From positions 3,390 through 53,252 of the forward strand of contig CAZMFT010000001.1 of the NCBI GenBank assembly GCA_964565655.1: a stretch of 49,863 bases of DNA, written 5' to 3'. The notes beneath the pieces were generated by a model, which did no database searches, was not told the DNA's origin, and saw only the letters and a program-made list of their open reading frames with translations. The translations under genes and the position numbers were made by a program. Origin of the DNA: an uncultured Candidatus Saccharibacteria bacterium. Its GTDB lineage: Bacteria; Patescibacteriota; Minisyncoccia; Phycocordibacterales; Phycocordibacteraceae. Positions 33,199-49,863 of the stretch are shown here, piece after piece. The stretch's first letter is position 1; each line of letters opens with the position of its first letter.

Positions 33199-36100
33199 TT
33201 AATGCGGCTCCCAGCCCTTTCCAGGCCAGCGGTGATAGAGGACCGGGATGAGGATGAGGGTGAGGACCGCGGACCACGCGAGGCCGAACATGATGGAGAA
33301 GGCCAATGGGCCCCAGAGGCTTGAGGCGAAGGAGAGCGGGATCATGCCGACCACGGTGACGACGGTGGTGAGAATGATAGGGCGGAAGCGGATAGACGCC
33401 GCCTCAACGACGACATCGGTCGTAGAGAGGTCCGGGCGCTCCTTGTGGATGTGCGCGATGGAATCCATGAGGATGATGGCATGGTTGATGATGACGCCCG
33501 CCAAGGCGATGACGCCGAGCATCGACGGGAAGGAGAGCGGTGCGCCCGTGAGCATGAGGCCCACGAGGACGCCGATCAGTGAGAGCGGGATGATGGAGAG
33601 GAGGTAGAAGGAGTAGCGGAACGAGTTGAACTCGAGGACGAGTATCGCGAGCATGAGGGCTGCGCCCGCAAGAAGCGCGATACCCATCTCCGCGAAGGAC
33701 TGGTTGACGTCCTCGCTCTCACCGCCGGTTGAAAGGGTCACGCCCTCGGGAAGCGCGACCTCTTCCATCCGGGAGAGGAATTCGCTCGTCGCCTCGATAG
33801 CGGTGGTCTCGGCGGATACGTCTGCCGAGAGGGAGGCGATACGGTTGCCGTCCTCGTGGCGGATGACGCTTTCCGCAGGCTCGTAGGTGACGGTCGCAAT
33901 CGCCGCGAGCGGGATAGGGCCCTTGGTACCGTTTATGGAAAGCTCCTTCACGGCCTCGATGGTCGCGCGGGTCGTCTCCGAGGGGTCCGCGTAATCCGGG
34001 TTGAGGTCGAGCATGGTGCGCACCTCTATCTCGTCGGAGCCGGTCCGGACATCAAGCGCCTTCGAGCCGAAGAGTGCCGTACGAAGAGTGTCAGCTGCGA
34101 CAAGCGGAGAGACGCCACGCTCGACCGCTTTCGCCGGGTCGATGCGCACGACGAATTCCGTGCCGTCGTCCTTGGTCGAGGTCTGTATGTTCACCACGCC
34201 TGGCATCTCGGAGAGGACCAGAGCGCCCTGATTGACGGCTTCTGAAAGCTTTCCGAGGTCATCGCCCGAGAACGTCGCTGCGATGGCGGTGCCGGTAGGA
34301 GGGCCTCCTGCGGGCTCGGTGACCGTGACGCGCGCGGACTCGATGGCGCTCATACGGGCACGAAGGGAAGCGACGACCTCCGCGCTCGTGACGTCCCGAT
34401 CTTCCTCGAGGTTCACGGTGATATTCGCGCGCTTGCTTCCCTGGCCTGGCGAAGCGCCGAACGCGGAGCCGGCACCCACTTCAGATACGAACGATGCGAT
34501 GTGCTCGTCGCCGTAGAGGAGTTCCTCCGCTTCGCGCACGGAGAGATCGGTCTCCGTAAGCGTCGTCCCTTGCGGCTTCTCGATCTCGACATAGATGAAA
34601 TCCATGTCTTCAGGCGGGAAGAAGACCGACTTCACGGCGCCTATCCCTGGAAGGAAGAGCGCAAGGACGAAGAGTCCTAGCATGCCAAGGAGGAACCGAT
34701 TCTCCTTCCTGCGGTCACCGAGGATGCCGCGGAGGAATCCGGCATACCAGTGCTTCGCGCGCTCGTTCCACTCTTCCTGGCGGCGCTCCATCGAGGAGAG
34801 TTCCGAACGGATCATCGCGATGGCGATAAGCGGCACGAGGCCGAGTGCGACGAAGATAGACGCGAGAAGCACGAAGATGACGGTGAAGGGGATGGAGGCG
34901 ATGAACTTGCCGACGATGCCCGAGAGGAAGAAGAGCGGTATGAAGACGGCTATGGTCGTGAAGGTGCCGGCGACCAAAGGCCATGCGTACTCGCGTATCG
35001 CCTCGACCGCAGCGCGCCGCTTGTCCCCGTAGCGGACCAGGCGCGTATGTATCGCCTCGACGACCACGATACCCGAGTCGACCAAGATGCCGATGGCCAG
35101 GATGAGGGAGAAGAGGGATACGAAGTTTATGGTGTTTCCGGACGCCCACATGCCGATGAAAGCGATGAGGAAGGACAGAGGGATGGACACTGCGGCTGCG
35201 AGCGACTCGCGCCAGCCGAGCGTAAGGAAGAGCATGATGAGGACCAGGGCGACGGTCTCGAGTCCAGCGCGCGTAAGCTCATGGAGGTCTTTGGAGATAT
35301 CCTTGGCGGCGTCGTAGGAGATGACGGTCTCGGTACCGGCCAGGGTCGTCGCCTGAAGTTCCTCGAGTTTCTCGCGCACGTCGGTGCCGGTCGCAAGAAT
35401 GTTGCCGCCGCGGCTCTTGAATACGGAAAGGGTGAGTGCGGGAGCCGATGGCGCGCCGTCTACCGAGACGCGCGAGAAGGTCGCCGGCGCCGAAAGGCCA
35501 TCGACGACGTCAGCGACGTCGCGCACGTAGATAGGCGCGCCGCCCGGACCCGAGAGCGCGATATCACCGATGCGCTCCGGGTCGGTCGCCGCAGACTCAA
35601 GGCGTATCGCGTACTCGACGCCGGAGACCTTGATGGAACCGAGCGGAGAGGCGACGCCGGATGCGCGAATGGCGGAGGTGACATCCGCGGCCGAGAGGCC
35701 GTACTGACGGAGGCGATCCTGGCGTACGATGACCGAGACCTCGCGCTCGCGGACGCCCGAGAGGGAGACGGAGGAGACGCCGCCGACGCGTTCGAGCTCG
35801 TCGCGCACGGATTCGCCGAGAAGCGTAAGCTCGCCTTGCGCAAGATCGCCCGCGATAGAGATGATGAGGATGGGCTGGTCCGCGAAATTCACGTCCGACA
35901 CCATCGGGTCCTCGGCTTCTGCCGGAAGGTCCTGCACCTTGTCTACCTCATCCTTAAGGAGCTGTATGGACTTGTCGATATCGGCGGAGGCGACGAACTC
36001 GACCTGTATGGAAGAAACGCCGGAGCCGGAGGACGACGTAACTTTCGATACGCCCTCGAGTCCCAAGACGCGATCCTCTATCTTGTCGGTGACGAGGCGC

Positions 36101-36282
36101 TCGACGTCCTCTGCACTTCCTCCCGGGAGTATGGTCGTGACGATACCGAGCGGTATCTGGACCTCTGGCGCTGACTCCTTCGGGATGCCGAGCGCTGCGT
36201 ATACGCCGGCAAGCGTGAGCACCACCGCCAAGAGGACGGTGAAGCTCTTCTTACGAAGGAAGAAGGTCCAGAAACTCGTCAT
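33199..36282 (-). CDS. RND-family efflux transporter (AcrB/HAE-type inner-membrane subunit)
   Basis: It is 1027 aa with the characteristic N-terminus (FFLRKKSFTVLLAVVLTLAGVYA...PE) and a 12-TM architecture with two large loops. Confidence 0.9.
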   Translation of the reverse strand: MTSFWTFFLRKKSFTVLLAVVLTLAGVYAALGIPKESAPEVQIPLGIVTTILPGGSAEDVERLVTDKIEDRVLGLEGVSKVTSSSGSGVSSIQVEFVASADIDKSIQLLKDEVDKVQDLPAEAEDPMVSDVNFADQPILIISIAGDLAQGELTLLGESVRDELERVGGVSSVSLSGVREREVSVIVRQDRLRQYGLSAADVTSAIRASGVASPLGSIKVSGVEYAIRLESAATDPERIGDIALSGPGGAPIYVRDVADVVDGLSAPATFSRVSVDGAPSAPALTLSVFKSRGGNILATGTDVREKLEELQATTLAGTETVISYDAAKDISKDLHELTRAGLETVALVLIMLFLTLGWRESLAAAVSIPLSFLIAFIGMWASGNTINFVSLFSLILAIGILVDSGIVVVEAIHTRLVRYGDKRRAAVEAIREYAWPLVAGTFTTIAVFIPLFFLSGIVGKFIASIPFTVIFVLLASIFVALGLVPLIAIAMIRSELSSMERRQEEWNERAKHWYAGFLRGILGDRRKENRFLLGMLGLFVLALFLPGIGAVKSVFFPPEDMDFIYVEIEKPQGTTLTETDLSVREAEELLYGDEHIASFVSEVGAGSAFGASPGQGSKRANITVNLEEDRDVTSAEVVASLRARMSAIESARVTVTEPAGGPPTGTAIAATFSGDDLGKLSEAVNQGALVLSEMPGVVNIQTSTKDDGTEFVVRIDPAKAVERGVSPLVAADTLRTALFGSKALDVRTGSDEIEVRTMLDLNPDYADPSETTRATIEAVKELSINGTKGPIPLAAIATVTYEPAESVIRHEDGNRIASLSADVSAETTAIEATSEFLSRMEEVALPEGVTLSTGGESEDVNQSFAEMGIALLAGAALMLAILVLEFNSFRYSFYLLSIIPLSLIGVLVGLMLTGAPLSFPSMLGVIALAGVIINHAIILMDSIAHIHKERPDLSTTDVVVEAASIRFRPIILTTVVTVVGMIPLSFASSLWGPLAFSIMFGLAWSAVLTLILIPVLYHRWPGKGWEPH

Positions 36283-36287
36283 AGATA

Positions 36288-37811
36288 TTATTCAGCGCCC
36301 GCGATCCTTACCTCCTGTCCTGCGGCAAGCCCGCGCGCGTCGCGTACGATAGCGAGGGTAAGCGGAAGCTCGGAGCGGATCTCGATGCGGTCACCACGAA
36401 CCTCGCCGACCTCGACTGCGTGCGAGATGAGGCGGTTGTCCTCGCCGACCGAGAAGACGACGCGGCTACCTGCGGAAAGCTTCACCGAGGAAAGGGGAAG
36501 GAGGATAGGGCCCTGGGGCGCTTCTGCCTTCGGTGCGGTCGCAAGGCGAACGCGCACGGACTGGCCGTTCGTAAGCGTGTCGCTCTCGTCCGCTGCGATG
36601 CGCACCTCTATCTGCTTGCGGATAGGATCGAGTGCTGGCGCGATAGCGGTGATGGTGCCGCCTGCGCGCTCGTCGATGACGACCTTGTCGCCGATCTTGA
36701 GGACCTCGCGGCTCTCCGGAGAGACGTATGCAGTGATCTCAAGCGCGCCGTTCCGCGCAACGGTCGCTGCATGGGTCATTGCTGAGACGTAGTCACCGAC
36801 CTTTATAGGAAGGAAGTTCACGGTGCCGGCAATCGGCGCGCGGATGACCGTGCGCTCGTACGCGGCCTGCGCAGCGCGAAGGCCGCCCAAAGCCTGCTTT
36901 ACCGAAGCGTCTGACGCAGAGACCTGCGTCGACCCGGTACCCGACTCATACGCGACGCGCGCGGCGCGGAGGCTCGCGCGAGCAGCTGCGACGGTCGTGC
37001 GCGCAGTGTTGATGTTCGCGAGCTCCGAGGCGGTCGCGCCCGAGTCCTTACGGTTCGCGACCAAGGAGATATCGGTGATGAGACTCTCAAGGTCAGCGAC
37101 GACCTTCTCGGCCTCGCGAAGCATCGCCTCGTCAGACAAGGTGCCCGACTGCGAGTTTCGGCGCCAATCGGAAAGCGCGTCATAGATAGCATCGAAGCGC
37201 TCGCCCAAGTTGCGGCTCCCGCCGTCAGACATGCGGAACTGCGCGCGTACCGTCGGATTGATGTAAAGCGGCGCGATATAGGCGTTCACTGCGGAGTCTA
37301 TGGAGACGCGCGTCGATTCGTAGACCGTCTCTACGTCCGCGCCCGTCGAGGCATCTGCCGCGCGCTTTGCGGCCAAGGCCGCCTCGTAGGAGCCTTCAGC
37401 GGAGAGGACAGCAGCTGCCTCCGCGCGGTTCTCAAGAGACGCGATCACGAACCCAGCACCGACGTCAGCCCCGATGCGGGTATTCACGGAGGTCACCGTG
37501 CCGCTCGTCTTCGCGAGGATCTCCGCTTCAGAGACGCTCTCGACCGTGCCGAAGAGGGTCGCGGAGCCGTCGCCGCCCGAAAGGGCGCCGACCGACTCGA
37601 GGGTCACTGCAGGAGGAGTATCAGAGACCTCGTCGGCAGAGCCGCCCGTGAGCACGAAGAGCGCTATGACGAGGATGGCGACACCGACCCCGATAAGCGC
37701 CTGGTTACGCGCGGAAAGGGAACGGAAGCGGCGCCACGTAGCGCGCACGAAAGAAACGGCCCTGTATGAGAGCCGGCGGAAGACGCCTATAAGCGAGGTG
37801 ATGAATGACAT
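36288..37811 (-). CDS. Efflux adaptor / membrane-fusion protein (HlyD/RND MFP family)
   Basis: It has an N-terminal TM helix, a long coiled-coil region and the lipoyl/beta-barrel signature VIRAPIAGTVNFLPIKVGDYV. It lies 5 nt upstream of the RND gene. Confidence 0.8.
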   Translation of the reverse strand: MSFITSLIGVFRRLSYRAVSFVRATWRRFRSLSARNQALIGVGVAILVIALFVLTGGSADEVSDTPPAVTLESVGALSGGDGSATLFGTVESVSEAEILAKTSGTVTSVNTRIGADVGAGFVIASLENRAEAAAVLSAEGSYEAALAAKRAADASTGADVETVYESTRVSIDSAVNAYIAPLYINPTVRAQFRMSDGGSRNLGERFDAIYDALSDWRRNSQSGTLSDEAMLREAEKVVADLESLITDISLVANRKDSGATASELANINTARTTVAAARASLRAARVAYESGTGSTQVSASDASVKQALGGLRAAQAAYERTVIRAPIAGTVNFLPIKVGDYVSAMTHAATVARNGALEITAYVSPESREVLKIGDKVVIDERAGGTITAIAPALDPIRKQIEVRIAADESDTLTNGQSVRVRLATAPKAEAPQGPILLPLSSVKLSAGSRVVFSVGEDNRLISHAVEVGEVRGDRIEIRSELPLTLAIVRDARGLAAGQEVRIAGAE

Positions 37812-44202: not shown

Positions 44203-45540
44203 ATGGCTACGTTCTATCGAACGCCGTGGAAGAATGCTTCCGGCGGCGACTCTCAAGATTATTCATCGTTCGCGCCTCGCGGGCGGGGACCAGGTCGTGG
44301 CGCATCGCGCGGCGGTCCTTCGAGCCGTGGCGGCTCTCGCGGCGGGTATTCCGCACGCCCGTCTTATGGCGCGTCGCGCGGCGGCTCTCGCTATGGCGGG
44401 GGTGGCGGTCGCGGCGGCAGGGGCAATCAGGGTCAGTACATCGACCCGTCTAAATTCATCAACAAGGCACAGCCTCTTGCGGAGGAGGCCCCATTCGTAC
44501 CGGTCCACCAGTTCGCAGATTTCGCCATAGGCGACAGCCTCAAGGCGAATCTTGCCGCAAAGGGCTATACGCAGCCGACCCCTATCCAGGACCAGGCAGT
44601 ACCGGTCGCGCTTACCGGGAAGGACATCGTCGGGCTCGCGAACACCGGAACCGGAAAGACCGGCGCGTTCCTCATCCCGCTTATTGACCGCGCGATGCGC
44701 GACGGCGGACTCCGCGTCCTCGTCATGGCGCCTACTCGCGAGCTTGCGGTTCAGATTCGCGACGAATTCAAGGGCTTCGCGAAGGGACTCCCGCTTTCCG
44801 CCGCACTCGTGGTGGGCGGCGCGGGCATCTACCCGCAGGTCTCCGAGCTGAAGCGTAATCCCGCATTCGTCATCGGTACGCCAGGACGCTTGAAGGATAT
44901 GATCGAACGCAAAGCGCTCGATCTCTCCGAGTTCAGCGCCGTCGTCCTCGACGAGGCTGACCGCATGCTCGACATGGGATTCATCGACGATATGCGCACC
45001 ATCCTGGGGCACATGCCGCGCGAGCGCCACACGCTCTTCTTCTCGGCGACGATGTCGAAGGATATCGAGGCCCTCATCGGCGAGTTCCTCAAGGACCCGA
45101 CGCATGTCTCGGTCCGCACCCGCGAGACCGCAGCGTCTATCGATCAGGACATCGTCCGGGTCGCTCCCGGCGGCTCGAAGTTCGAGATGCTCGTCGACCT
45201 CCTCAAGGATGCGCAGGAGTTCTCGAAGGTGCTCGTCTTCGGACGCACGAAGCACGGCGTCGAACGCCTCGCGAAAGACCTTTCGCGTCGCGGCATACGC
45301 GCTGAAGCCATCCACGGCAATAAGACACACAACAATCGCTTAAAGGCCCTGGATCTCTTCAAGAAGGACCATGTACAGGTCCTCGTCGCCACCGATGTGG
45401 CGGCGCGCGGACTCGATATCTCGGGCGTCTCCCACGTCATCAACTTCGACCAGCCGTCGACCTACGAGGATTATGTCCATCGTATCGGCCGGACCGGCCG
45501 CGCGGGGAAGACGGGAAAGGCACTGACCTTCGTCAACTAA
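44203..45540 (+). CDS. DEAD-box ATP-dependent RNA helicase with an N-terminal Arg/Gly-rich extension
   Basis: It has the Q motif (GYTQPTPIQ), ANTGTGKT, DEAD, SAT, ARGLD and HRIGRTGRAG motifs. The first ~85 aa or so are RG/RGG repeats. Confidence 0.9.
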   Translation: MATFYRTPWKNASGGDSQDYSSFAPRGRGPGRGASRGGPSSRGGSRGGYSARPSYGASRGGSRYGGGGGRGGRGNQGQYIDPSKFINKAQPLAEEAPFVPVHQFADFAIGDSLKANLAAKGYTQPTPIQDQAVPVALTGKDIVGLANTGTGKTGAFLIPLIDRAMRDGGLRVLVMAPTRELAVQIRDEFKGFAKGLPLSAALVVGGAGIYPQVSELKRNPAFVIGTPGRLKDMIERKALDLSEFSAVVLDEADRMLDMGFIDDMRTILGHMPRERHTLFFSATMSKDIEALIGEFLKDPTHVSVRTRETAASIDQDIVRVAPGGSKFEMLVDLLKDAQEFSKVLVFGRTKHGVERLAKDLSRRGIRAEAIHGNKTHNNRLKALDLFKKDHVQVLVATDVAARGLDISGVSHVINFDQPSTYEDYVHRIGRTGRAGKTGKALTFVN

Positions 45541-45661
45541 AGCTCCGCTCAGGCATATTCCTCGATAGGTACGACGTATTTTCCAGCTAGAAAATCGTCT
45601 CGCTCTCGTGCCGTCGCGCTCCGAGAGCCCTCTCTCGGAACACGCCCTCGCTCTGTAAGAA

Positions 45662-45699
45662 CCACAGCCCGGCCTATGGCCGGGCTGTGGTATTGTTTG
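45662..45699 (+). terminator. Rho-independent terminator
   Basis: ccacagcccggcc-tat-ggccgggctgtgg (13 bp) followed by tattgtttg. Confidence 0.65.
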
Positions 45700-45727
45700 C
45701 GGGTATTGCCAATCAGCTCGTACTTAC

Positions 45728-46417
45728 ATGGATACCAATGCATCGCCCGTAGAACGCTACCTTACCCCCATCGCTGTCCTTATCGGCGCCGCCCTCATCG
45801 CTTTCGCGGTCGCGTACGGCCGCGGCGGTACGCCTGACGGCGGAACGGCAGTCGCCGGCGCCACCTACGCGGAGACGATCAAGTCGGCCGCAGAAGCGAA
45901 TGATATCGATGCTGAGGTCGTCGCCGCGAAGGCTACCGAGAAGCAGGCAGAGTACGAGGCGCTCATCAATGCATCGCGCGACCAGGGCGCCTCATTCGGC
46001 GTCAATGGAACCCCGACTGTGATCCTCGGCAACGAGACGATCGCGGGCCTCGACCCGGCGCTTCTTGATAAGCTCGCGGCAGCGGTCGCAAATCCCACGG
46101 CGCCTGGGCCCGATGCGCTCATCTCGAAGGTCACGACCGCAGGCGAGCCGTATGTCGGAGACCCGAATGCGCCGGTCACGATGGCGTACTACTTCGACTA
46201 CCAGTGCCATTTCTGCCATCAGTTCATGCGCGAGGTGATGCCGAAGATATTCGACCAGTATGTGAAGACGGGTAAGCTGAAGATCGTCATCAAAGACTTC
46301 CAGTTCCTGTCACCTGACTCGGTCGTGGGCGCGGTCTACGGACGCGCGCTGTGGGAAGTTGACCCGAATCGACACTTCGGCTGGTTTATGGCCCTCGGTC
46401 AAATACAAGAGCAGTAG
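45728..46417 (+). CDS. Membrane-anchored DsbA-like thiol:disulfide oxidoreductase with permuted motif order
   Basis: It has a TM anchor. FGVNGTPTVILGN (normally the C-terminal cis-Pro motif) comes first, then GDPNAPVTMAYYFDYQCHFCHQF (normally the N-terminal CxxC motif). Confidence 0.7.
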   Translation: MDTNASPVERYLTPIAVLIGAALIAFAVAYGRGGTPDGGTAVAGATYAETIKSAAEANDIDAEVVAAKATEKQAEYEALINASRDQGASFGVNGTPTVILGNETIAGLDPALLDKLAAAVANPTAPGPDALISKVTTAGEPYVGDPNAPVTMAYYFDYQCHFCHQFMREVMPKIFDQYVKTGKLKIVIKDFQFLSPDSVVGAVYGRALWEVDPNRHFGWFMALGQIQEQ

Positions 46418-46430
46418 CAGTGATGCGACA

Positions 46431-46450
46431 GGCCCCGAAAGGGGCTTTTC
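46431..46450 (+). terminator. Rho-independent terminator
   Basis: gcccc-gaaa-ggggc followed by ttttc. Confidence 0.6.
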
Positions 46451-46532
46451 GCTATCCCCGGTAAAGCGAGGTGGGGAAGGTATATGCTTAGGGGTAAGAG
46501 GCCTCGGCCCCTTTATAAGACTTACGTACGGT

Positions 46533-46946
46533 ATGAATATCCTTACCTGCAACTGCCTGTCGCGCTTCCATGGCGTCGGGCTCTTCCTTATCCGTGTCGT
46601 CGTCGGTGCAATCTTCGTCGTCCATGGCTACCAGAAGTTCTCGGGACAGATGGACGCTACCGCGATGCTCACGAACCTCCAGTTCCCGGCTCCGGAAGTG
46701 TTCGCAGTAATCCTTGTCGCTGCAGAGCTCATCGGTGGCGCATTGCTCATCATCGGCGCGCTCACGCACTGGGCAGCGAAGATGCTTACTATCGTCGCGG
46801 CGGTCGCGCTCATCGTCGTGCACCTTCCGAACGGATTCACGGGACAGGGCGGATATGAATTCATCCTCCTCATCCTCGTGTGCTGCATCGCGCTCATGAT
46901 CGCCGGCCCGGGCCGCTGGTCGGTAGACGCCGCACTCAAGAAATAA
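46533..46946 (+). CDS. DoxX-family membrane protein
   Basis: It has the LFLIRVVVGAIFVVHGYQKF signature and 4 TM helices. The track ORF from 46359 is an upstream extension. Confidence 0.8.
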   Translation: MNILTCNCLSRFHGVGLFLIRVVVGAIFVVHGYQKFSGQMDATAMLTNLQFPAPEVFAVILVAAELIGGALLIIGALTHWAAKMLTIVAAVALIVVHLPNGFTGQGGYEFILLILVCCIALMIAGPGRWSVDAALKK

Positions 46947-46951
46947 GAGAG

Positions 46952-47377
46952 ATGGACGAGCACGCGTTCCGCAATATCGCTGCTGTCGCGTGGCTCTCCG
47001 TACCGGACAGGTTCGCAGGGAGGGTCGACAATGTCGCCCTCCTTATCGAGGATGAGCCGGCGGGAGATGTATTGAAAGAAGAGGGGATAGAGCAGGGCGA
47101 AACCCTCTTAGGGCTCTACCGGGGCGTGCCGATGACCTTGCGCGGCGAGAGCTACGGCCTTGGGGAGACGCTCCCCGACACGATCACGCTCTACCGCCTG
47201 CCCCTTATGGAGGAGGCGGAGGCGCTCCGAGCGTCCGACCCGTCGCTTACCGAGTCGGATGCGGTCAAGAAAGCGGTCGAAGAGACCCTGTGGCACGAGC
47301 TCGCGCATTACTTCGGCATGGAAGAGAGTCATGTGAACAAGCGCGAGGACGAGGGGACGAACCGGTACGAGGGGTAA
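46952..47377 (+). CDS. Zincin-like metallopeptidase family protein (DUF1025/Zincin_1-like)
   Basis: It has LGLYRGVP...LPDTITLYR...HELAHYFGMEE. Confidence 0.7.
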   Translation: MDEHAFRNIAAVAWLSVPDRFAGRVDNVALLIEDEPAGDVLKEEGIEQGETLLGLYRGVPMTLRGESYGLGETLPDTITLYRLPLMEEAEALRASDPSLTESDAVKKAVEETLWHELAHYFGMEESHVNKREDEGTNRYEG

Positions 47378-48285: not shown

Positions 48286-48756
48286 ATGGAAAAGGCACTC
48301 TTTGCTGCGGGCTGTTTCTGGGGAGTCGAAGACGCGTTCCGGAAGACGCCGGGCGTGATTGATGCGGTCTCGGGGTATACGGGCGGACATGTAGAGAATC
48401 CGACCTACGAAGCGGTGTGTACAGACACGACCGGGCACGCAGAGGCGGTCGAGGTGACGTTTGACGCGCAGCAGGTCTCGTATGAAGCCTTGGTGCGGAA
48501 ATTCTTCACGCTCCATGATCCGACGCAGATGAACCGGCAGGGGCCGGATGTGGGGAGCCAGTACCGCTCCGCGATATTCACGGAAGGCGAGTCGCAGAAA
48601 GAAGTTGCGGAGCGCGTGAAGGCGGAGCTCGCGCCGAACGCCTATCCGAAGACTATCGCGACGGAGATAGCGCCGGCCTCCACGTTCTACCGGGCAGAGG
48701 AATACCACCAGCGGTATTTCGAGAAGCATCCGGGTCGCGCGGTCTGTCACATATGA
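48286..48756 (+). CDS. msrA: Peptide-methionine (S)-S-oxide reductase MsrA
   Basis: It has the GCFWGVE active-site motif and matches MsrA across its full length. Confidence 0.9.
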   Translation: MEKALFAAGCFWGVEDAFRKTPGVIDAVSGYTGGHVENPTYEAVCTDTTGHAEAVEVTFDAQQVSYEALVRKFFTLHDPTQMNRQGPDVGSQYRSAIFTEGESQKEVAERVKAELAPNAYPKTIATEIAPASTFYRAEEYHQRYFEKHPGRAVCHI

Positions 48757-49181: not shown

Positions 49182-49586
49182 TCACTTCGTCTCCTCCTTC
49201 TCGAACCCGAGGCAGACGGAATTGATGCAGTATCTTTTCCCGCCGGCCTCCTTCGGGCCGTCATCGAATACATGGCCCAAGTGTCCGCCGCAATTCTTGC
49301 AGAATACCTCCGTGCGACGCATCCCGTGAGAGGTGTCCTCGCGCGTGCCGACATTCTCCGCGACTGCGGGGTCGGTAAAGGACGGCCATCCGGTACCTGA
49401 ATCGAATTTCGCGGAGGATGAGAAGAGAGCGGCGCCGCAGGCGCGGCACGTGTACATCCCGGCGTCGTGATTCTCGAGAAACTTGCCCGAGAACGGCGCT
49501 TCGGTACCTGCCTCCCGCAGCACGCGGTATTCCTCTGGGGAAAGCTCCTCTTTCCACTCCTCCTCGGTCTTCTTGTGGGTAGCCAT
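49182..49586 (-). CDS. msrB: Peptide-methionine (R)-S-oxide reductase MsrB (zinc type)
   Basis: It has two CxxC pairs (CRACG, CKNCG), GWPSF, HLGHVFDDGP and the catalytic RYCINS. Confidence 0.9.
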   Translation of the reverse strand: MATHKKTEEEWKEELSPEEYRVLREAGTEAPFSGKFLENHDAGMYTCRACGAALFSSSAKFDSGTGWPSFTDPAVAENVGTREDTSHGMRRTEVFCKNCGGHLGHVFDDGPKEAGGKRYCINSVCLGFEKEETK

Positions 49587-49643: not shown

Positions 49644-49863
49644 ATGAAGGCTCGCGCGGCGCTCATTGCCATCCTGGTCCTCGCATTCATCGGTATCGCC
49701 GACTCCTGGTACCTCGCAGAGAGCGCCGTTACCGGCACGGACCTCGCCTGCGGCATAGAGGGGCTCGATGGCTGCAATATCGTCGCTGCAAGCCCCTATT
49801 CGAAGCTGATGGGCATCCCGCTCGGGGTCTACGGCGTCGGATTCTATGGCATCACGTTCGGCC
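49644..49863 (+). CDS. VKOR-family (vitamin K epoxide reductase-like) membrane protein, 5' partial
   Basis: TM1 is followed by C-x6-C (CGIEGLDGC), then SPYSKLMGIPLGVYG, which is typical of bacterial VKOR. The ORF runs off the window end. Confidence 0.7.
   Translation, partial: MKARAALIAILVLAFIGIADSWYLAESAVTGTDLACGIEGLDGCNIVAASPYSKLMGIPLGVYGVGFYGITFG

Follow-up and report, generated by a model that had tools for sequence, protein, structure and literature searches.

A natural, membrane-anchored DsbA-family protein with circularly permuted topology in the Patescibacteria

DsbA is a folding catalyst of textbook standing and a target for anti-virulence drugs. An open reading frame (ORF) at positions 45728 to 46417 of a 49,863-nucleotide (nt) stretch of DNA from an uncultured Candidatus Saccharibacteria bacterium (contig CAZMFT010000001.1 of assembly GCA_964565655.1; the whole stretch is called the window here) raises the question of whether this enzyme also occurs in nature with its two halves exchanged. 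A sequence-only reading of the window had described the ORF as DsbA-like, with the C-terminal half ahead of the N-terminal half, and the coordinates and motifs it gave were borne out exactly. The encoded protein (the query) does not follow the canonical sequential order b1-b2-a1-b3-[a2-a6]-b4-b5-a7; it is a homolog of the DsbA/Thioredoxin_4 families with permuted topology and not a canonical member. We are close to certain that it is a real, folded, and selected circular permutant of DsbA. Its parts, and the analyses that define them, are as follows.

45728..46417, + strand: permuted dsbA gene, 229 codons plus stop (ORF; Pfam, PDB, and BLASTP searches; AlphaFold2 [AF2])
45728..45826, + strand: N-terminal hydrophobic signal-anchor, residues 1 to 33, with a model helix at 7 to 30 (AF2; anchors of relatives)
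45827..45865, + strand: flexible tether from anchor to domain, residues 34 to 46 (predicted local distance difference test [pLDDT] below 50)
45866..46090, + strand: canonically C-terminal part (C-part), residues 47 to 121 (Pfam, PDB, AF2)
46010..46015, + strand: Thr-Pro of the cis-Pro loop, T95-P96 (invariant in four of four group members)
46091..46150, + strand: linker from the old C terminus to the old N terminus, residues 122 to 141 (alignment; ratio of nonsynonymous to synonymous substitution rates [dN/dS])
46151..46414, + strand: canonically N-terminal part (N-part), residues 142 to 229 (Pfam, PDB, AF2, hhalign)
46205..46216, + strand: active site C160-H-F-C163 (both cysteines invariant in the query group)

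The C-terminal DsbA signature, FGVNGTPTVILG (residues 90 to 101), lies ahead of the N-terminal signature, GDPNAPVTMAYYFDYQCHFC (residues 144 to 163), which comes second in the chain. Residues 1 to 33 are probably an anchor that stays uncleaved and not a signal peptide that is removed. After this anchor the protein resumes the DsbA domain at ATYAETIKSAAE, and its C terminus reads WFMALGQIQEQ. Canonical relatives have AQDEEGDQGFG at the corresponding place, followed directly across the break by DL.SI. The ending LGQIQEQ and the restart at ATYAETIKSAAE thus amount to one clean cut within one loop. Both ends map to the a3/a4 loop, in agreement with the earlier claim that the protein stops where its first half picks up.

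Searches with established models returned the two halves in exchanged positions. The Pfam hidden Markov model (HMM) Thioredoxin_4 (PF13462) matched residues 137 to 220 with profile positions 2 to 84 of 165 (77.1 bits; cutoff, 23.2), and DSBA (PF01323) matched residues 48 to 110 with positions 122 to 182 of 191 (48.3 bits; cutoff, 25.6). Both matches are partial, and they fall in swapped, not normal, order. No dedicated Pfam or NCBIfam model for a permuted DsbA matched the query. In a search of PDB sequences, residues 3 to 100 of BdbD (3EU3) corresponded to query residues 122 to 219 and BdbD residues 146 to 174 to query residues 77 to 105; the DsbA and TsdA of Corynebacterium diphtheriae likewise matched in two swapped stretches, and 4PWP and 7UNN matched in both halves. 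BLASTP against five single canonical relatives gave three disjoint high-scoring segment pairs (anchor, C-part, and N-part) in permuted order, and against the same five sequences doubled it gave one contiguous segment pair covering query residues 48 to 229 (182 to 191 amino acids [aa]; 46 to 48% identity; E values of 1e-54 to 1e-61). This is the classical test for circular permutation, and it was positive. Each half is 50 to 55% identical to canonical DsbAs of Paceibacteria, which rules out two unrelated partial domains.

Whether the two pieces can close into a single domain was addressed by structure prediction. An AF2 run with the four permuted orthologs only gave a pLDDT of 48, was unusable, and was superseded by a run on an alignment of 120 rows, comprising 29 permuted proteins and canonical relatives split into N- and C-fragments. 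The best model had a mean pLDDT of 88.8 and a predicted TM-score (pTM) of 0.78, with blocks of 90 to 98 (mostly 96 to 98) over residues 51 to 220, and each secondary-structure element of DsbA was present in it exactly once. Residues 47 to 121 held helices a4, a5, and a6 (47-57, 62-71, and 73-89), the loop G94-T95-P96-T97, strands b4 and b5 (97-100 and 103-106), and helix a7 (111-121). The G-T95-P96-T motif is followed by strand 97-100; the cis peptide bond itself is putative. Residues 142 to 229 held strand b1, strand b2 (150-156), helix a1 (161-179), which begins at the CxxC motif, strand b3 (184-190), and helices a2 and a3 (196-211 and 213-224), after which the chain stops within the a3/a4 loop. 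All five helices of the helical domain between b3 and b4 are therefore present, split by the chain termini into a2 and a3 on one side and a4 to a6 on the other. The order anchor, a4-a5-a6, cis-Pro loop, b4-b5, a7, linker, b1-b2, CHFC, a1, b3, a2-a3 was confirmed.

A Foldseek search of the PDB with this model returned DsbA-family structures only. Canonical DsbAs aligned over about 90 columns, half of the length, at 1.2 to 2 Å, with a root mean square deviation (rmsd) of 1.2 Å for BdbD of Bacillus subtilis. The sole near-full-length alignment in the PDB was with 1UN2 (CPDSBA_Q100T99), over 195 columns with TM-scores of 0.47/0.56 and an rmsd of 7.1 Å. The confident model, the presence of every element once, and this match are consistent with the predicted packing of both pieces in one chain as a single DsbA fold, thioredoxin core plus helical domain, as closure into one thioredoxin fold would have it. 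An hhalign comparison of the canonical-relative profile with what we take to be the E. coli DsbA sequence and its T99/Q100 numbering (93% probability) placed T99/Q100 between DQGF and GDLATI, so the engineered and natural breaks share the a3/a4 loop.

The protein in 1UN2, cpDsbA_Q100T99, comes from the random circular permutation of DsbA by Hennecke, Sebbel, and Glockshuber (1999, J Mol Biol 286:1197, as cited in PMC3281007 and PMC13552848). It resembles the query in its fold, in the kind of rearrangement, and in the site of the break. It is, however, man-made, soluble, and periplasmic, with a short designed linker and about 16% identity to the query, whereas the query is natural and membrane-anchored, belongs to the BdbD/Thioredoxin_4 branch, and has a 20-residue linker that appears to come from an ancestral post-anchor segment. 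That thioredoxin-like folds include circular permutations has been remarked in general terms (PMC3091736). In the full-text literature searched, no naturally permuted DsbA was described, only the engineered cpDsbA, and nothing was found on DsbA or VKOR in Patescibacteria.

The arrangement could still be an accident of one assembly or one decaying gene. A protein search found full-length homologs of the same order, P0002 at 81% identity (from Paceibacterota metagenome-assembled genomes [MAGs]) and P0003 and P0004 at 59%; more than 100 canonical-order DsbAs of 225 to 240 aa from Paceibacteria/Patescibacteria matched only 40 to 60% of the query. Five Logan assemblies from separate runs carry the permuted gene, as does an NCBI MAG, and the frame is intact in all permuted copies, down to 59% identity. 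A search with the four-sequence alignment identified one GTDB species representative carrying it, Paceibacterota MAG Gw_Eff_bin_28 (L011). The same search returned three Nitrosopumilaceae/Cenarchaeum sequences (L012, L013, and L014, 5001-5219) that match the N-half only, at 42% identity over query residues 130 to 202. Contigs from an independent wastewater run tile positions 45696 to 46700 at 100% identity and cross the gene free of joints and indels, and the recurrence of the arrangement in other assemblies agrees with the earlier opinion that this is not a misassembled or frameshifted gene.

Selection on the gene was estimated by the Nei-Gojobori method, with synonymous sites near saturation. 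Overall dN/dS among the permuted orthologs was 0.04 to 0.16; it was 0.09 between the window and L001 (0.088 for the C-part and 0.047 for the N-part) and 0.044 between L004 and L006 (0.046 and 0.024, respectively). Values per half rose to about 0.24 in more distant pairs, and those of the linker ranged from 0.03 to 0.34. The low ratios in the halves and the linker argue for purifying selection on all three. Within the linker, N122, P123, P126, L131, I132, K134, V135, T137, A138, G139, E140, and P141 are invariant in the query group. A six-frame HMM scan found no second DsbA and no relic half-domains in the window.

How might such a protein have arisen? The segment after the anchor, GTPDGGTAVAG, and the linker between the halves, NPTAPGPDALISKVTTAGEPYVGD, are both similar to the linker that follows the anchor in canonical relatives (...TAPTDTTKAPAADISKITTEGEPFIGD in P0009, for instance), and by this resemblance the inter-half linker is judged homologous to it. 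Two canonical-like linkers fit a conversion of anchor-L-N-C plus L-N-C into anchor-L-(N deleted)-C-L-N-(C truncated). On such a route, an anchored canonical dsbA would have undergone tandem duplication or fusion, the first N-part would have been lost by an in-frame deletion that kept the anchor, and a premature stop would have arisen within the second helical domain. The sequence-only reading had proposed tandem duplication with trimming of both ends and had not foreseen that the anchor was retained, which makes the 5' trim an internal in-frame deletion. Indirect support for duplication and trimming comes from the linkers, from overlapping a4 remnants that P0198, P0231, and an acidic trio of permuted proteins have kept at their two ends, and from tandem proteins: P0198 and P0231 end in ...AQDAEGDQGFGNAASIDQLN..., with helix a4 at the C terminus, the acidic trio has a4-like sequence at both ends, and anchored tandem DsbA-DsbA proteins (N-C-N-C) exist (P0277 and P0302). 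On the other side, the sister lineage of the query group yielded no tandem intermediate, the tandem proteins belonging to other lineages, so the route is a proposal drawn from these traces. Arrays of two to five DsbA domains, up to 1,196 aa long, are common among distant matches (P0125, P0128, P0176, and P0228).

The permutation was not confined to the query and its orthologs. An exhaustive profile search of 1.84 billion representatives, together with a second indexed search, yielded matches that were classified with N-part and C-part HMMs into 215 canonical, about 70 tandem, and at least 29 permuted (C-N) proteins. The sequence-only reading had not anticipated that the architecture would be recurrent rather than a one-off. 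In neighbor-joining (NJ) analysis the permuted proteins fell into four or more groups, namely, the query group (bootstrap support, 1.0), a 16-member group (P0263...P0324; 0.995) with canonical P0266 as its sister at 0.97, the acidic trio P0168/P0203/P0232 (0.96), and several singletons; those outside the 16-member group and the trio include P0121, P0126, P0132, P0152, P0198, and P0231. Like the query, these proteins consist of anchor, C-part, linker, and N-part and are broken within helix a4 or beside it. Unlike it, they have other anchors and genomic context, shifted breaks, and usually CPFC; they are 26 to 47% identical to the query, and each is nearer a different canonical relative. Their public annotation is "thioredoxin domain-containing protein" or "protein-disulfide isomerase" only.

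All permuted proteins formed one clade in 0 of 200 NJ bootstraps, and for most groups, the query group included, the nearest canonical protein exceeds any other permuted group in similarity. Because the deep NJ nodes are weakly supported, the case for the number of origins was built chiefly on shared indels, anchors, and genomic context, which are independent of the tree data. P0126 and canonical P0146 have the insert ETGGVPQI.TP.AMPE in common; P0168 and canonical P0206 and P0258 share a hairpin insert, YRTG.DTG.K, and an anchor type; canonical P0142 has anchor and a1 motifs in common with P0152 and P0198; and the 16-member group, which lies in a genomic context different from that of the query, shares a Cys pair with canonical P0266. 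The indels that tie groups to different canonical relatives suggest recurrent independent permutation, and we infer, rather than prove, at least three or four such events, each in or next to helix a4.

Two of these lineages have features of their own. The larger second permuted group (P0263, P0282, and P0306-P0324; L015 5001-5708, L016 5001-5816, and L017 5001-5963) lies in a conserved context of acylphosphatase and Pth genes, with thioredoxin and thioredoxin reductase nearby. Its Cys pair, FKSC in the first piece and AYCAN in the second, also occurs in canonical P0266 and tandem P0277/P0302 and probably forms a structural disulfide that would staple the two permuted pieces together. P0231 (266 aa) has lost the first active-site Cys (DFMSSYC) and still has, at its C terminus, a long remnant of the helical domain; it may be a noncatalytic derivative.

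What the query does in the cell was approached through its family and its neighborhood, the features of which are listed here.

45661..45691, + strand: terminator-like hairpin with a 14-bp stem, between the DEAD-box helicase gene and permuted dsbA
46430..46451, + strand: terminator-like hairpin AGGCCCC-GAAA-GGGGCUU followed by UUCG, 13 nt past the stop codon
46533..46946, + strand: DoxX-family membrane protein, a neighbor kept in all permuted-group loci
46952..47377, + strand: Zincin_1 metallopeptidase-like protein, a conserved neighbor
48286..48756, + strand: MsrA (PMSR), lacking a signal sequence
49182..49586, − strand: MsrB (SelR)
49644..49863, + strand: VKOR homolog, first 73 codons, running off the window end (PF07884, 45.1 bits; cutoff, 27.5)

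Downstream of the gene, the window reads DoxX, Zincin_1, DUF4383, MsrA, NUDIX, MsrB, and VKOR in that order. The VKOR gene that the sequence-only reading had placed 3 kb downstream was confirmed as a partial ORF starting 3.2 kb away, and a full-length VKOR stands at the matching place in L001, L002, L003, and L006 (152 to 153 aa in L001, L002, and L006). Across the permuted loci the gene order is BipA-type GTPase, DEAD helicase, permuted DsbA, DoxX, Zincin_1, (MsrA, NUDIX), MsrB, VKOR, DUF8173, and AhpC/Redoxin. Canonical-order P0012 (L009) and P0009 (L007/L008) occupy a matching neighborhood, with the DEAD helicase upstream and Zincin_1, DUF4383, MsrA, MsrB, VKOR, and Redoxin downstream. The shared slot indicates that the permuted gene replaces canonical dsbA in situ. 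Canonical anchored DsbAs of Patescibacteria/Paceibacteria (P0005-P0120; PF13462) have, besides the slot and the VKOR neighbor, the same anchor motif, (E/D)RYLTPIAV; the query differs from them in its swapped halves, in the loss of the break loop GDQGFG, and in a CxxC motif without the usual Pro.

Family membership and the VKOR neighbor together suggest an extracytoplasmic disulfide oxidase that is reoxidized by VKOR. In this scheme the anchor helix would hold the domain outside the cytoplasm, the CxxC pair would oxidize cysteine pairs in exported proteins, and the VKOR homolog would reoxidize DsbA as in the actinobacterial DsbA-VKOR pathway. The pairing of DsbA with VKOR is established in mycobacteria (PMC3792642, PMC12421883, and PMC11208910). 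The actinobacterial proteins (Rv2969c of Mycobacterium tuberculosis; MdbA and TsdA of C. diphtheriae) show, as is presumed for the query, a monoderm-type arrangement of an N-terminally anchored oxidase with VKOR in place of DsbB (PMC3792642 and PMC12421883), but they have the canonical order, and the VKOR pairing of the query is deduced from gene neighborhood. We lean, with some reserve, toward a VKOR-coupled oxidase.

Other features of the locus concern its transcription and wider surroundings. The downstream hairpin at 46430 to 46447, with an extended stem at 46422 to 46456, folds at −22.7 kcal/mol (z = −3.3). Of the clean terminator that had been placed at 46431, then, the strong hairpin is real; only four U residues follow it, and the consensus scan did not call it. 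Just 36 nt (45692-45727) lie between the upstream hairpin and the start codon (ATG) of permuted dsbA, and the consensus scan called no sigma-70-like promoter in them; the mRNA may lack a leader or may arise by read-through from the helicase gene. A minor contig of run X1 (depth, 4.8 versus about 17 to 25) joins 45547 to 45696 via 583 other letters, which points to a co-occurring strain with a different, longer helicase-dsbA intergenic region. The DEAD-box helicase itself (44203-45540, + strand) carries an RGG/SRGG-rich low-complexity extension of about 95 aa at its N terminus; helicases of related loci are 350 to 368 aa long without the extension or are preceded by a separate small ORF (L002, L004, and L009). 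Further upstream are genes for an extracytoplasmic function (ECF) sigma factor, DUF5667, YceG, and an M16 peptidase, as in L004 and L009. The window also encodes an AcrB-type resistance-nodulation-division (RND) transporter (33199-37811, − strand; 1,027 aa; 603 bits) beside an HlyD-like membrane-fusion protein, which is unexpected in a Paceibacteria-like, presumably single-membrane, cell.

Several observations weigh against a functional, monomeric, permuted oxidase. The fold is a prediction: with canonical relatives split into half-fragments in the alignment, the evidence for contacts between the halves comes from the 29 permuted sequences and from the fold learned by AF2, and closure was judged from pLDDT, pTM, element order, and the 1UN2 match at 7.1 Å. 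The absence of a second, canonical DsbA was established within the 49.9-kb window. The active site reads CHFC in the query and CGFC or CGYC in other group members, against CPFC in about 80% of canonical relatives, and an altered dipeptide means that the redox potential, and with it the direction of action as oxidase, isomerase, or reductase, may differ. Local misassembly, or the remains of a scrambled gene, could show such a rearranged order, and the poor four-sequence AF2 run would suit a decaying pseudogene or chimera whose swapped order has no functional meaning. The same arrangement, however, was found with synteny in six independent assemblies or runs and in contigs of a further run; the frames are intact, both halves are constrained, the Cys pair, Thr-Pro loop, and linker are invariant, and the deep-alignment model is confident. 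The pseudogene or misassembly explanation was rejected on recurrence, synteny, selection, and intact frames, and we consider it extremely improbable. Should the C-part of one chain instead pack against the N-part of a second, the protein would be a domain-swapped membrane dimer or oligomer. Swapping can be favored in circular permutants and in relatives built of tandem repeats (N-C-N-C, up to five units), and the superposition on 1UN2 is only moderate. Yet the monomer model is confident through both pieces, with its pTM reached despite a floppy anchor, and the conserved 20-residue linker far exceeds the length needed between the old termini. The linker of the engineered cpDsbA is said to have about five residues, and the crystallized engineered permutant with the matching break site reportedly adopts a monomeric DsbA fold. 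A domain swap therefore seems quite improbable.

The protein might fold as a permuted DsbA yet have given up the role of primary oxidase, its altered CxxC making it an isomerase or a reductase that serves, for instance, in extracytoplasmic repair. The replacement of CPFC by CHFC, CGFC, and CGYC would fit such a role, since the dipeptide is a main determinant of redox potential and CGYC is the motif of E. coli DsbC, and so would the redox-repair neighbors DoxX, MsrA/B, and AhpC-type Redoxin. Against it, the gene occupies the slot of canonical DsbA with VKOR nearby, the protein has no dimerization domain of the DsbC/DsbG type, MsrA and MsrB lack signal sequences and would thus be cytoplasmic and not obvious clients, and no CcdA/DsbD-type supplier of reductant was seen among the genes scanned. 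We regard an isomerase or reductase as unlikely. Membership in DsbC/DsbG was rejected separately: NCBIfam gave partial matches far under cutoff (DsbG, 20.9 versus 124 bits; DsbC, 13.3 versus 215 bits), and the N terminus is a hydrophobic anchor, not a dimerization domain. Returning to the permuted oxidase, and blending the claim of a permutant with that of a VKOR-coupled enzyme, we judge it likely that the gene encodes a functional natural permuted oxidoreductase of the DsbA/BdbD type.

The tolerance of DsbA for circular permutation was reportedly mapped in the laboratory in 1999. Evolution appears to have used the site of the crystallized engineered permutant, apparently more than once, in anchored enzymes of ultra-small Patescibacteria and of other lineages. 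With the permutation, the membrane tether attaches at helix a4 instead of strand b1, and that this shift matters for geometry relative to VKOR is speculation. It is possible, although we hold it only tentatively, that recurrent natural permutation, at least three or four times with the anchor kept, was adaptive, the chain topology being selected for membrane geometry. If so, moving the tether from b1 to the helical domain would change how the active site and the substrate groove face the membrane and VKOR, loss of the CPxC proline in the lineage of the window would also have retuned redox properties, and nature would have repeated the random-permutation experiment of 1999 in these proteins.

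The system itself is not new in kind, and the case it makes for protein evolution and Dsb biology is a solid one. It offers a clean natural example of permutation by what would be duplication and trimming with an N-terminal anchor retained, and the roughly 70 tandem DsbA proteins would be a ready pool of duplication intermediates. It also marks a blind spot of annotation: permuted DsbAs appear as two partial domain matches under generic labels, and sequential aligners underdetect them. Matched permuted and canonical orthologs in one genomic slot would allow tests of how connectivity and tether affect folding, redox potential, and recognition by VKOR.

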